A DNA stretch of 64,000 nucleotides from Eledone cirrhosa (lineage: Eukaryota): assembly GCA_964016885.1 (NCBI GenBank), contig OZ024743.1, positions 12,462,001 through 12,526,000 on the forward strand. Direction: 5' to 3'. Positions 47,331 to 60,680 of this stretch are shown here, piece after piece (the stretch's first letter is position 1; the number at the start of each line of letters is the position of its first letter). Made by a program: the position numbers and the translations under genes. The notes below the pieces were generated by a model that was given only the letters and a program-made list of their open reading frames with translations, ran no database searches and was not told where the DNA came from.

Positions 47331-48640
47331 TCACAGATTTTCATTCATAAAATTAATTAAGCGACTAAATGCAAGTTGACAAGATGCACTGTGAAATCCT
47401 GGTGATGTAGCATTGGTAAATGCATGCCCAGCATCATAGACATGGAATTCATGTTTTACTTTAGCGCCATCAAGTTTCTTGCGGAGAGCTTCTTGATCAG
47501 CTGCAGAAGAGAAACCAACTACAGCATCGTTTTTACCAAAATGGCACTGCAGAGGAATCTTAATCTTTGTAACATCTGCAATATTTTCCCCAGGAATTCC
47601 ATAAAATGGTGCAGAAGCATTGATCTCTGGAACACGGACAGCTGCAGCAAAAGCCAGGGCTCCACCCATACAAAAACCAATTACGCCAATCTGTTATTCA
47701 AATAAAAAGTGAATGAATTTATGTTTTAATTGATTGTGCAATAAATACAAAGAAGATGTGGCATAAATGGTATAGCATGAGAGTAAATTCTTTACAATGT
47801 TTAGGTTTGTACTTCTTAAGTGGGATTTTGCCCTCAATATCTGCGAAGTTATTAAAATATGTACGAATCATAAAGTGGAGTTTATTCAATCAGTGACACT
47901 CATTCATTATAATATCACCTTGATGATATATCTTACTTTGTCATTTCGCTATTTGATATGATATAGATATAATGAGATAAAGCTCGCTTGAGCTATATGT
48001 TACTTCCATCCTTGTATTTCATCAAATACCTATATAACCGAAGGGGGATCCAAACAAACAAGAACCTCCTCATGGCTGCTCAAAATAGCAGCCAAACCTC
48101 ACTGAAATCACATTTTATTGTTTTAAAAAAGAACATATTGAATAATGTACTCTTAGATATACTAAATAACAGGACAGTCACCTTTTAAATCACAAGTCTA
48201 CTCAATTAAGACTGGATTGATCTGGAGCTAAACAACAAAAGGGATCTTGTGAGATATGGGCAATGCTCATTCTCTTAAGACAAAACACTAAAAACAAACT
48301 GTGTAACAAAAATCTTGCTCACCTTCATACATCCTAAATCAAGAAGGTACTCAGCAGCACCTTTGATGTCTTGAACGGCACCATCCCAGTCAAGGTTGGT
48401 CATCAAATGATTAGCTTCCTCATTATCAGTTGCCAGCTTACCACGGTACAGGTCAGGAACAAGGGCAACAAATGGACCTCTTGATGCCAAGTCAGCAGCT
48501 TCATCTTGAATTTGTTGGTTCATTCCCCACCATTCTTGTAAAACAATGAGGCCTCGTTTTGTCTTTGTTGGATCTCCAACCAGCACTCCAGGGCATGCAC
48601 CTTGCTTGTTCTCAGATGGAAATGTAATACTTTTACTCAT
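47331..48640 (-). CDS. Dienelactone hydrolase family protein (Usf-like carboxymethylenebutenolidase), 225 aa, 2 coding exons
   Basis: Exons 48323-48640 and 47331-47690 in phase 0; motifs LQEWWG, PDLYRG, GFCMGG (Cys nucleophile), GKND, AGHAF; probable 5'UTR exon 53586-about 53660 with upstream TATA-like run. Confidence 0.93.
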
Positions 48641-49747
48641 AGTTCTATCAAAAGTGAAAAGAAAAACATCTTAACCCTTTAGCTTTTTACAGTTCATGGT
48701 ATTAGCTGTCAGAAGTAAAAGTAGGGGAAGGTTGACGAATGACGTCACATATTTTCATAGTTATGGTTATCAATATAAAAAACAAGTCATTTTCACCAAC
48801 AGTGGAGTTAACTTAAATGAAAATATAGGTGGCCCTTAAAAGGGCCAAATTATGGTTATCAAATTTTTTTCACCAACCCTATACATTTATGAAGAAATGT
48901 TTAGAAAACAAATTATTTTCACCAACCTTATTCAAAAGCATGGATACAGTGCCCATGGAGACAAGCGACAGTCCCCATGGAGACAATTCCCACCAATCAG
49001 CAACAATCATCACCAACACCACGTGTAAATAAATAAACTTTAATCTTCACTTTGTGATAATACACGCATCTGCAAGTTGAAAAATGAGTTCTATAATATA
49101 TCCAAGTGTTAAGGGAATTAACCATCGCGATCTTTCCATCGCTACCGCTACTACAGCAGATACCGTCAATTGGTTGAAAATTCAAGGACTTCTGAATACA
49201 CAAAATGTCTGCCTTTCATGTGGTCAACGAATGTTGGAAGTAGCGAAACAAAATGTGTCAGATGGGATTATCTGGTCATGTAAAAGACCATGTAGAAAAC
49301 AGGTTTCTATTAGAAAATCACATTTTTAGAAAATAGCAATTTGAAGTGTGAACAAATAGTTGATATTTTTGGGCAAAAGAAGACTTAGCCAAGAAGATTT
49401 CAGAGGAATGTCGTATCGCGAATGTGGCCGTAGCAGATTGGCAAAATTTTTGCTGTGATGTATGTGCAGAGTACTATGTGGCACAAAACATTAAGCTTGG
49501 CGGGCCAAACCGAATTGTTGAGATTGATGAAAGCGCATTTGTGAGAAGGAAATACCATCATGGCCATTCTGTGAAAACACAGTGAGTTTTTGGTGCTTTG
49601 GAAAGAGGTACCAGAAGATGTATTTAAGTAGCAGTAGAAGACAGGACAGCGGAGACACTTTTAACCATTATACAGGATCGTATATTGCCAGGGACAACCA
49701 TAATATCTGATCTCTGGCCTTCCTATAATACAATCGATCAGCTAGAC

Positions 49748-56954: not shown

Positions 56955-58050
56955 CACCAGATAAAAAAATGCGTACAGCAAAAAAAAGTAATATTGTTGG
57001 AATATAAACCTTTAAAAATACAGGACAAGAAACTAAAATAAAACTTTAAAAGAATAGGACAAGAAACTAAGATAAAACTTTAAAAGAATAGGACAAGAAA
57101 CTAAGATAAAACTTTAAAGAATTGGACAAGAAATAAAAAGTTTTACAATAATATTAGTGGCAAAATTTTTATTGGTAAAAAATCGAGTTCCACATTCATA
57201 GGCTCTGGGTTCCACATTCAGAGGTCGTCGTCAGACCGGGGATCATTTGATCCTGGTTTGAACACCAATTGGGCCATAACCATACCCCTATTTCATCATT
57301 CGGCGACACGCCTCATGTGTCATGCATAATGTGAATGGACCCATGGGCCCATGAGCACAGATCTTGAGCAGCAGCGGACTGTCTTGTCGTCCCGCTCATC
57401 CCTGATCTTGACCAACCCATCCATCTTCTCCTTGCATCTTGTCCTTGAGTTCAAGTCCGGCAGTCCAGATGAATGCGTGCCACAGCTTTCTGGTACAGGA
57501 AGGGGGAGCAGGAGGACTGGAGGGATGACGGGACAGAGGGAGGGAGGACCGGTGGTTGAGGGAGGTGCCGTAGTCGGTGGTCAGAGTCGACATCTTGTCC
57601 TGGTCGTCTTCTCCATCTTCGTCTGGTGTTGCGGGACCAGAAGTGCATTCTTGGAGGAGACCTGAAGCTGCATCGGCCAATTCTTCTTGCAATGGTCATT
57701 CAGACGGAGCAGAACTGCTCAGCCAACCAACCCCAACCAGAACCAACCGCTCAGGGGCAACGCACAATGAGAGCATGACAATTATTATGCACTAATCAAG
57801 AAGATACTGGGGCATAGCACAGGAAACGAATAAAAAAATTTTGCCACTAATATTATTGTAAAATTTTTTATTTCTTGTCCAATTCTTTAAAGTTTTATCT
57901 TAGTTTCTTGTCCTATTCTTTTAAAGTTTTATCTTAGTTTCTTGTCCTATTCTTTTAAAGTTTTATTTTAGTTTCTTGTCCTGTATTTTTAAAGGTTTAT
58001 ATTCCAACAATATTACTTTTTTTTTGCTGTACGCATTTTTTTATCTGGTC
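56955..58050. mobile_element. Fold-back DNA element: about 215-bp TIRs with internal 31-bp subrepeats around a GC-rich 650-bp core
   Basis: 56955-57172 is the reverse complement of 57829-58050; TA flanks. Confidence 0.85.
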
Positions 58051-58322
58051 TACTATTTTTTAAGGCAATGCAAGCAACAACTATCTAATAATTAAATGAT
58101 CATAGTGAATTACTGACAAGTGATTGACATTTTAAAGTTCTTTTGAGTATAATTGCAATCTAGTTGAGGCAACTGGCTTAATGACAAAGCTAGTAAATCA
58201 TGAATGCATTTGAGATGATTAGTGCATAATAGTGAATTGGTGAAACTTGTGCATTTCAATGGTGTTACAACAATAGATGTAAGTTATATAGTAGTAATAC
58301 TTTATCATTTTAACTTTTTAGA

Positions 58323-58682
58323 ATGGACAAAAACCCATGCAAAGAAATGACTTTGACTGCAGTGATTCTCTCCAATTTACTTACAAAGCAAAACGTGGTC
58401 AAATACCTTATCATCTCTGATAAAATGCCCATTGAATCACTGAAAATCGGATGCATGGAATTCCTCATAAAATGCACCTATGAATCGGAAGCCATCACAT
58501 ATATCAATGGATATAGGGAGTTGTTCACACTGGAAGACCATCACTTCATTTGTGACTTCATCAGTTATCTCCACGATTATCTCAGACACCCAATGCCATT
58601 GATGAGAGGTGATCCAATGTGTGAGCATGTAACTAATCTTATAGAAGTTGTTATCGACCACCTGGCTTTTAGTGACATTTGA
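58323..58682 (+). CDS. 119-aa ORF with BACK/SPOP-C-like helical motif
   Basis: LTKQNVVKYLIISDKMPIESLKIGCMEFL resembles the segment following BTB domains; preceded by a tttttag acceptor. Confidence 0.45.
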   Translation: MDKNPCKEMTLTAVILSNLLTKQNVVKYLIISDKMPIESLKIGCMEFLIKCTYESEAITYINGYRELFTLEDHHFICDFISYLHDYLRHPMPLMRGDPMCEHVTNLIEVVIDHLAFSDI

Positions 58683-58862
58683 CTGATTTGACTGATAATG
58701 ATGTATTTTAAAAAAGTATGTGTACATTCTTGTTACTATTTTAAGGCAATGCAAGCAACAACTATTTAATAAAATTTAAATTTAAAAATGACCATTGTGC
58801 ATTACTAGTATGATGACATTTTATTAAGTCACAAAATTAGTCAGTCAGCCATAGAACAAGGA

Positions 58863-59632
58863 TCATGTGGCAAAAATGTGTGTCAATTTAAGATTTCCAA
58901 CATTGTTCAAATGAATCATATCTGGTTTGAAGTCAGATTTGTCAAATTTTGACCAATTTTCAATGTTGTGAAGATTGGGCAAGTTCAATTTTTGAATCAT
59001 TTCTTTCATGCAGTAATTAAACTTTTCCAAACGAGAATTTCTCTTGCCCAAGTCATTTTTATTTTCAATTACACTTTGTGGACGTGGAATGACACCACTG
59101 TAGAAAATGGGTGTACAGTGGTGCTTTTCCGCTATTTTCTGTAGCATTGCAAAGAGACTCTTCCCCTGTTTTTCCGGTTTTGTGCCTCGAATGGGCACTT
59201 TGTCCTTAATTTACAAATAAATGATTAATAAAAAATACTTGTATTACTTTGCACAGCTTTGTAGTGCCAACGGTGCGACGAGGATTCAGATCATTAGAGC
59301 CGAAATGAACCACCAATACTTTCACAAAAGGACAACAGATAACAATGTTGGCGATTAACATTACCTGGCCCTGACGGGCCCCAGGTATACAAAATATCTA
59401 AGTATTTTTGTTGGTATGATAAGTAAATACATTTGAATTAATATTTTTATACCTTCTGGTCATTCGATTTCGCCACATTTCTAATTATGGATTTGTAAAA
59501 ACTGGCATGAATGTGAATTTGATCAGTCCAATTGCCCGATTTTAGTGAAAAGTTTTGATTCGAAATGGAAATACTCCATTTCCATGCCATGAAAAAAATG
59601 AATAAGCCGATCAAAAAGCCGCGAAACATCAT
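58863..59632 (-). CDS. SGNH/GDSL hydrolase-fold protein, 223 aa, 3 exons, hydrophobic N-terminus
   Basis: Exons 59453-59632, 59248-59397, 58863-59204 joined by 55- and 43-nt GT-AG phase-0 introns; blocks YKSIIRNV, CIPGAR, VVHFGSND, SGVIPR, DMIHLN..G..KL. Confidence 0.72.
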
Positions 59633-60186
59633 TTTTAATTAAGCGAAATTAGTGGATGCAAATCTCAGAAAATATTGTACACTATTCGCACCTATCGGTA
59701 CAAAAATATAGCGCACTATTCGCACCTATCGGTACAAAAAATCGTACGACTGTTAATAATACTAGAAGTGCAAACTATCTGTTGAATACCTGGTATATGA
59801 AGAGCAACCGATACGATTGGTTGGCGATCGGTCTTGAAGAAGAATGAAGAATGAAGTGAAATTTTGGTCTGGTTGTTGTCATCGGTGTTTCGCAGAGATG
59901 CCGGCACGAACAAAGGTGTCAGTGACACAAAGTTGTTCGCTTGAACAAAGGTGTCGGTCCGACAAAGGTGTCAGTCAGACAGACAGTCAGACAGTGTCAC
60001 AGTCGCTGCGACAAAGCGATCGATGCGATTAAAAAAAATGTAACTCACATGTTTACCTATATTTTCGCAAACTATTGATAGATTGGTACAAAAAATAGCT
60101 TTGATAATAAACATAAATTTTTAACGAATTATTTAAAAAGCATTTTAGCAGTGAAAAGTGAATTAATGTTTCACACTGACGCAAGT

Positions 60187-60313
60187 AGGGCCGTTCAGAA
60201 ATGACGTAGTCAATTAGGAGGAGGGGATTCGGCGATTTGACTACATTTGACTAACGTAATCACAATCACAAGAGTTCCGCCGAAAAAAATTCGTCATTTC
60301 TGAATTACCTCCC
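60187..60313. mobile_element. PIF/Harbinger-like MITE
   Basis: Imperfect TIRs ggccgttcagaaatgacg / cgtcatttctgaattacc. Confidence 0.55.
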
Positions 60314-60680
60314 CTAGCGTCACGCTTACTACTCACTCACTTGAACACAAGATTTATCAGCAAACTTTGATTATAAACTTTTTCCCGCTGGACCAAATTT
60401 CTAGATTTTTAAGCCAAAAGATGCGTAATGATCTACTGTTCATGCTCATATAAGTTTTATCTCAGTTAAATAAAGTAGAGTCGCGCTGTACTCTCGTAAA
60501 CAGACGATTGCCAATGAAAACACGACCACAATATTACTAAACGGACTACCGTCCGTTTAGGATATATATATATATATATGTGTGTGTGTGTATGTAAAAG
60601 GTAAACAGAAATAACAACACAATCGGTACAGTGTATGGAAGGTATATATTAGGTAAACGCTTGATATAGCAGGAAGAGGG

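Follow-up and report, generated by a model that had tools for sequence, protein, structure and literature searches.

An SGNH hydrolase-like reading frame in a Helitron-like element of Eledone cirrhosa, a probable deletion chimaera of transposase and cargo gene

On the minus strand of a 64,000-nucleotide stretch of the Eledone cirrhosa genome (the window), positions 58863–59632 had been described as an intact, apparently secreted hydrolase gene of the SGNH type whose first catalytic block reads YKS. The locus raises the question of what this frame is and from where its unusual block I and its leader are derived. Our best explanation, which we hold with high confidence, is that codons 1–48 of a RepHel transposase were joined to the esterase half of a NADAR-SGNH gene within a non-autonomous Helitron-like element, likely through a single internal deletion of 9 kb, and that the resulting deletion chimaera is likely a non-functional relic that is copied passively.

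The reading frame and its element

In silico splicing of exons 59632–59453, 59397–59248 and 59204–58863 produces a single open frame of 223 aa, and the three exons and the two phase 0 GT-AG introns of 55 and 43 nt are as first proposed. The first exon is composite: its codons 1–48 (59489–59632), ending in FYKS, correspond to the start of the RepHel frame in the parent element, and the remainder (59453–59488) is a remnant of a cargo gene's exon 3, starting with the codon that follows the catalytic Ser of the parental GDS. The 55-nt intron (59398–59452), predicted from sequence, is the parental intron 3, and the exon that follows (59248–59397) carries blocks II and III. The 43-nt intron (59205–59247) is the parental intron 4; the size first given holds for the window copy, but the family intron is 57 nt long and the 14-nt deletion occurs in one of 22 aligned copies, namely that of the window. 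Exon 3 of the window copy (58863–59204), the final SGNH exon with block V and the stop codon, is also short of 12 coding nt relative to the family.

By the block definitions given in the available text of PMC4021074 (Gly in block II, G-x-N-D in block III, D-x-x-H in block V), the frame contains SGNH-like blocks II (PGA), III (GSND) and V (PDMIH) in the correct order, and to this extent the initial reading stands; the place of the block I GDS is taken by FYKS, which is of RepHel origin. In Pfam, exon 3 alone is matched by Lipase_GDSL_3 (E 0.009; 16.7 bits against a cut-off of 27) and Lipase_GDSL_2 (E 0.05; 14.5 against 32.9), both sub-threshold, and the named Atlas clusters closest to it are GDSL lipases (scores 0.91–0.92, recognition 3114). 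Weak searches with this short exon found no homologues among longer proteins (81 candidates) and none at E≤0.001 among 1.84 billion representatives, and PDB sequence searches gave nothing or unrelated weak matches. The introns look genuine, being uniformly GT-AG, short and compatible with the frame, and they were likely spliced in the parental cargo gene. Contigs of four public runs (one study, of unrecorded type) contain the introns, have no joint at the splice sites and are silent on expression.

The frame lies in a non-autonomous Helitron-like element of 3606 bp (56957–60562, minus strand) that runs from 5'-TCC to CTGG-3' and is inserted in a (TA)n tract, with A before it, T after it and no target duplication. 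The preliminary description had considered cargo of a DNA mobile element, and the position of the frame in a rolling-circle element bears this out. The survey of copy number and neighbourhood across the genome that it had proposed was run and defines the element ends at 56957 and 60562. Searching the 3.0-Gb host genome at the DNA level yielded 348 candidates, of which the 40 scored (the window itself counted) are all at least 96% identical; alignments with 19 other copies stop sharply near both ends, and taking ~8.97 kb out of a 12.6-kb copy gives the window element. Its 5' terminus forms a hairpin with a 10-bp stem and a 4-nt loop (60537–60560, minus strand; -10.2 kcal/mol, z -3.5, equalled by none of 200 shuffles), which has 320 exact matches in the genome against 0 for a control. 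Adjoining it is a 5' subterminal inverted repeat (60527–60538, minus strand; 13 nt in the family, with a 3-nt deletion beside it in the window copy), and the 3' subterminal inverted repeat (56987–56999, minus strand) is found 30 nt from the 3' end. No hairpin is present at the 3' end, where the last 60 nt fold only at z -0.7.

The 3' block (56957–58052) consists of an inverted repeat of ~220 bp (56957–57170 and 57834–58052) around a 663-bp GC-rich filler. It also occurs in full-length elements and in those of a sister family, the filler differing in the sister and being inverted in one full-length copy; this presence elsewhere rules out a MITE insertion at the 3' end. A neighbouring ORF and repeats at 59680–60180 had been assigned to the same element as the frame, and both are indeed inside it. 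The repeat region (59669–60180, minus strand), upstream of the RepHel frame, contains a 34-bp tandem pair (59669–59740) and a 17-bp GTC-rich array (59910–59981) and aligns collinearly with the 5' part of full-length copies. The ORF, of 119 aa (58323–58682, plus strand), runs opposite to the cargo gene and stays open in all but one of the 16 copies where it was located; it had been called BACK-like, a label that does not hold, as Pfam gives neither a BACK match nor any other known family and its Atlas recognition of 1807 is below the 2300 mark.

The insertion site was studied in a flank sample of 20 further copies, hand-picked from the hairpin matches of the first contig and mostly other than those already aligned. 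The base before TCC is A in all 20, and T follows CTGG in all 13 whose 3' end was found (in the other seven it was not found). Four of these 13 have pure (TA)n on both sides, a tract that is restored if the insertion was A|T but not if it was T|T. In another copy, a nested sister-family element provides, by comparison with five unfilled copies, a true empty site, which is likewise A|T without duplication. A TA target duplication is ruled out by non-TA flanks on the left in 4/20 copies and on the right in 2/13. The same sample includes at least three other recurring types of deletion derivative (5/20 each), which have kept both ends and lack the SGNH frame; contig joints from 58192, 58461 and 59033 to ~60292 agree with these other types.

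The fusion junction and the full-length copies

The first long copy was spotted by an exon-3 match lying 10.5 kb from its own hairpin, as against the usual ~1.5 kb. In it the same first 48 codons read, without a change of frame, into a RepHel transposase whose domains (Helitron_like_N, E 7.7e-24; DUF6570; PIF1; UCH) mark a Helitron-like transposon and dispose of the virus that had been offered as an option; the esterase exons follow 9.1 kb downstream, preceded by YIVGDS. A second long copy is complete at ~12.6 kb, and at C2:46.81 Mb and C28:42.94 Mb both sides of the junction are present in single elements, 9.0–9.1 kb apart, with RepHel and NADAR between them. Genome-wide, the parental block I region occurs at seven places, and of the matches to the RepHel continuation at least 16 are full-length and ≥94% identical, 40 of the 52 candidates having been scored. 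Among 14 long stretches examined, six have FYKS (five) or FYKF (one) followed by KKRNYP, seven have GDS (six) or GDL (one), and two have both. The sister family, at ~81% identity, has FYKS in the RepHel N-terminus and no SGNH gene in the three copies examined.

Because FYKS runs into RepHel both in the long copies and in this SGNH-less sister, both YKS and the hydrophobic leader come from RepHel. What had been taken for a block I variant keeping its Ser is the last three codons of the RepHel piece, which meets the cargo gene between 59489 and 59488 with a microhomology of 1 nt. The N-terminal hydrophobic stretch is present as described (hydropathy peak at residues 6–16 of 2.83 in the window, 2.5 in the parent), but it is the start of the RepHel frame, and since most other copies read ...FIFSMARKW, the F14 and W17 of the window are not family features. 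The appearance of an intact and secreted hydrolase gene is produced by the fusion junction.

The junction has 114 matches in the genome (at most one mismatch). We aligned 24 gene copies (20 top DNA matches and four weaker ones, three further loci having been dropped as they contained no gene region); the same junction is found in 22 of them and an open, spliceable frame in 14. Change among the copies is neutral: the private changes of 22 copies comprise 17 synonymous, 54 non-synonymous and three nonsense substitutions, with an omega of 1.01 relative to the element's own non-coding spectrum, and of eight indel events in coding sequence six cause frameshifts. For the SGNH part, an initial NG86 count yielded a pN/pS of 0.58; recalculated from private changes alone, with the mutation spectrum that was observed, the value is 0.98. 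Mean divergence from the column majority is 1.1%, a value biased low because top matches were chosen, and the family is young. The frame is not a domesticated host gene, since it exists in at least 114 dispersed, nearly identical copies that change neutrally; the domesticated retroelement esterase once suggested fails on the same ground, and the long ORFs scanned contain no reverse transcriptase domain.

These observations are consistent with a history in which a full-length element lost ~9 kb internally, with both termini spared. As the deletion left the termini intact, the 3.6-kb derivative would be copyable in trans by RepHel from intact elements through rolling-circle transposition (Helitron biology according to the available parts of PMC4067079 and PMC11417382), and would have inserted into A|T sites ~114 times. 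The deletion would have taken the NADAR domain along with the β-strand and Gly-Asp of block I, and because these are lost the fusion is likely inactive. Transcription of the fusion frame from the transposase promoter would be possible, and its introns would be inherited from the cargo gene. The RepHel Ser happens to occupy the place of the catalytic Ser, and this gives the frame the look of an esterase that has a leader and an odd block I. Against a relic stands the fact that the joint is in frame and its Ser exactly in the catalytic register; as the joint has no more than 1 nt of microhomology to account for it, this must count as a notable coincidence. The 14 open frames among 24 also speak against a relic, but 20 of the 24 copies were top matches of a young family.

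In our view it is highly improbable that the fusion yields a functional new enzyme whose expression is driven by the transposase promoter, whose targeting depends on the RepHel leader and whose nucleophile is the RepHel Ser, and that this favoured the spread of the derivative. Such an enzyme would fit the in-frame joint and the register of the Ser, the intact blocks II, III and V of the window copy, the hydrophobic N-terminus of the family, whose S-M-A ending looks by eye like a cleavage site, and the 114 copies. It is at odds with the omega of 1.01 and the stops and frameshifts among copies, with the Tyr and Lys that replace the Gly and Asp of block I, and with the spread of derivatives that lack the gene altogether. 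Neutral change in the copies would be compatible with selection on one source copy, a situation that we consider very unlikely. The chimaera, read as a relic, illustrates how a transposon that loses an internal segment in frame can come to mimic both a signal peptide and an unusual catalytic motif; annotation of the genome would predict more than 100 such "secreted esterases".

The RepHel core, compared between the family and its sister, has an omega of 0.13 over 794 codons. The first 48 codons reach 1.36 in the same comparison (45 codons) and the next 40 codons 0.016, and on account of the former value part of the 48 codons may be a fast-evolving leader or untranslated in the parent. The RepHel N-terminus includes a conserved hydrophobic stretch ending in VELNPGP (codons 49–90, omega 0.016). 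We take VELNPGP to resemble a 2A ribosome-skipping peptide with Cys for Asp; our literature search found no paper combining "2A-like" with "Helitron". Composite long copies also occur (C18:12.5 Mb and C10:54.8 Mb), in which a 5' end and a piece of the last SGNH exon precede RepHel, and at C28:136.46 Mb intron 2 of the NADAR-SGNH gene contains a nested sister-family element with two 5' termini.

The parental NADAR-SGNH gene

The parental cargo gene has five exons (191, 130, 183, 150 and 354 nt) encoding 335 aa and four GT-AG introns of about 54, 213–215, 55 and 57 nt, with an AT content of 70–82%. Its block I reads YIVGDSIIRN in six of seven copies and GDL in the seventh, and a contig of public run X1 spans the GDS exon with GDS unchanged. 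The 335-aa frame is open in the C2 copy, though the block V Asp is lost there; of the other copies two are frameshifted, one is interrupted by insertions, one combines GDL with an altered acceptor and two are partial. Exons 1 and 2 match positions 4–67 and 82–115 of the NADAR profile, in this order (E 0.0018 and 0.017, and 5.7e-4 for a genome read-through, all under the 35.1-bit cut-off), and exon 3 has no NADAR match in Pfam.

This gene structure bears on the suggestion that the gaps are indels in a dead LINE ORF1 esterase acquired by the element instead of introns. All four gaps have GT-AG ends and are AT-rich, three of them measure 54–57 nt, their removal gives one frame, and the two NADAR exons follow the order of the profile, which leaves such indels very little credibility. 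In their favour, splicing is predicted from the DNA sequence, and the context of block II presumably resembles that of LINE ORF1 esterases. That the 3.6-kb form with an intact YKS esterase is ancestral, and the long copies carry 9 kb of Helitron DNA inserted in its first exon, might be argued from the 114 short copies against seven with GDS, but is almost certainly wrong, as the reading frame is preserved across both borders of the 9-kb segment, with RepHel (kept in the sister) on the left and NADAR and GDS on the right, and the cargo gene splices to an open frame in the C2 copy.

Weak searches with short exons found no homologues of the NADAR/GDS exon or of NADAR exon 1. No host source gene was found: a genome search with the NADAR profile gave two matches among four candidates, both within this element, and Lipase_GDSL_2 has a single match over the cut-off in the genome, at C18:42430666–42430998 (C18:42.43 Mb), where the open frame spans 466 aa. 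Helitrons with SGNH cargo are already known from fish (texim). A NADAR-SGNH cargo gene in a Helitron was not found in print: the literature on NADAR with transposons (among the matches listed) and on NADAR with SGNH gave no Helitron case, and the main text of PMC11417382 names neither domain; a HELIANO supplement lists 20 captured domains, which may bear on the point.

According to the available text of PMC11125620, NADAR proteins are ADP-ribosylhydrolases. It is conceivable, though we regard it as a long shot, that the parental NADAR-SGNH enzyme strips host ADP-ribose from single-stranded DNA intermediates of the element as a counter-defence, in which case the window frame would be a fossil of such a gene. 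This is also our preferred guess for the parental gene, an accessory enzyme that would free the element's single-stranded DNA of ADP-ribose while its SGNH half would remove an ester group. If the NADAR half were active, one could ask directly whether transposon DNA is tagged with ADP-ribose in animals. The available text of PMC12477816 likewise describes YbiA-type NADAR on mobile elements, namely retrotransposons (Ectocarpus Gypsy and oyster Tx1), whereas here the carrier is a DNA transposon and NADAR belongs to a separate spliced gene, fused to SGNH and absent from the window copy.

Classification of the parent element and its relatives

The DUF6570 domain, an HLE2 transposase marker according to the available text of PMC11417382, is present in both the family (E 1.9e-14) and its sister (9.2e-18). 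F/Y-w-R ahead of Rep motif 2, an HLE2 criterion in the available part of PMC4067079, is found as YFWRLEYQQRGAPHIH (YFWR motif) in 3/3 copies examined; the residue between G and P of motif 2 is Ala, against Ser in HLE2 and Leu in HLE1. The terminal inverted repeats, a 13-nt pair, are inside the HLE2 range of 12–16 nt. The C-terminal apurinic endonuclease of Helentrons in the strict sense is missing, as there is no Exo_endo_phos match and RepHel ends with the UCH domain. By DUF6570, UCH and YFWR, without endonuclease, the predicted transposase is of the HLE2 type. The canonical HLE2 3' stem-loop and T|T insertion are replaced by a 5' hairpin, in which the sister family shows a compensatory base-pair swap, and by an A|T insertion, established from the empty site for the sister family and from flanks for the window family. 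With HLE1 the element shares 5' TC, 3' CTRR, an A|T target and no duplication, but it has no 3' hairpin 10–12 nt before CTRR and its Rep carries DUF6570 and YFWR. The esterases of LINE ORF1 and Ngaro elements, intronless ORFs beside a reverse transcriptase, are a poor fit, the gene having four GT-AG introns and RepHel as its neighbour, while the ORFs scanned contain no reverse transcriptase domain.

Neither canonical group has termini like these, and the parent joins an HLE2 transposase with HLE1-like ends and target, which is of interest to transposon specialists. By termini and domains it resembles proto-Helentrons and HLE2-reverse elements, with which it shares an endonuclease-less HLE2 RepHel, a 5' stem-loop, short inverted repeats, A|T insertion and a CTAG-like 3' end, though its start, TCCT, is neither TT (proto-Helentron) nor TGCCT (FoHeli3-5). 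In the available text of PMC11417382, such a layout is given for none of 404 sampled species beyond the cited Phytophthora and Fusarium cases, and elements of these types are so far reported, in the sources available to us, only from an oomycete and fungi. The proto-Helentron of Phytophthora infestans (available parts of PMC4067079 and PMC11417382) has the A|T target without duplication, inverted repeats of ~12 nt and the same type of 3' end (CTAG, as in the sister family, or CTGG here). Here, unlike in that element, the start is TC and not TT, the hairpin abuts the left repeat, UCH and NADAR-SGNH stand in place of SET/TIR, and the host is an animal. With FoHeli3-5 of Fusarium oxysporum (HLE2-reverse; available parts of PMC5148889 and PMC11417382) the element has in common a hairpin 5' of the left inverted repeat, no 3' hairpin and a right repeat 20–40 nt from the end; these fungal elements differ in starting with TGCCT, in ending with CTCCTGT and in a target preference that is not established, and those parts report no such cargo for them.

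Two further systems offer partial parallels. The HINE/DINE-1 elements (available part of PMC4067079) are likewise deletion derivatives that keep both termini and outnumber their autonomous partner, with subterminal repeats and internal short tandem repeats, but they insert at TT, have a 3' stem-loop and depend on partners that encode an endonuclease. The texim genes of fish, linked to Helitrons in the available text of PMC4021074, are also intron-containing, multicopy SGNH genes carried with a Helitron, with no reverse transcriptase and no assigned function. They have up to 15 exons and lie upstream of or around the Helitron coding region, whereas the gene described here has five, lies downstream of RepHel and is fused to NADAR; the likeness noted is one of layout, the protein search with exon 3 having found nothing at E≤0.001 among 1.84 billion representatives.

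Six RepHel loci chosen from the genome-wide Helitron_like_N matches have neither ends nor cargo in common with this element. On C20, C27, C19 and C16 there are many near-identical HLE1-type Rep matches on the same strand at a spacing of roughly 100–150 kb, which suggests Helitrons within large tandem duplications. Elsewhere in the window (47331–48670, minus strand), two exons read like a host gene of the dienelactone hydrolase family.
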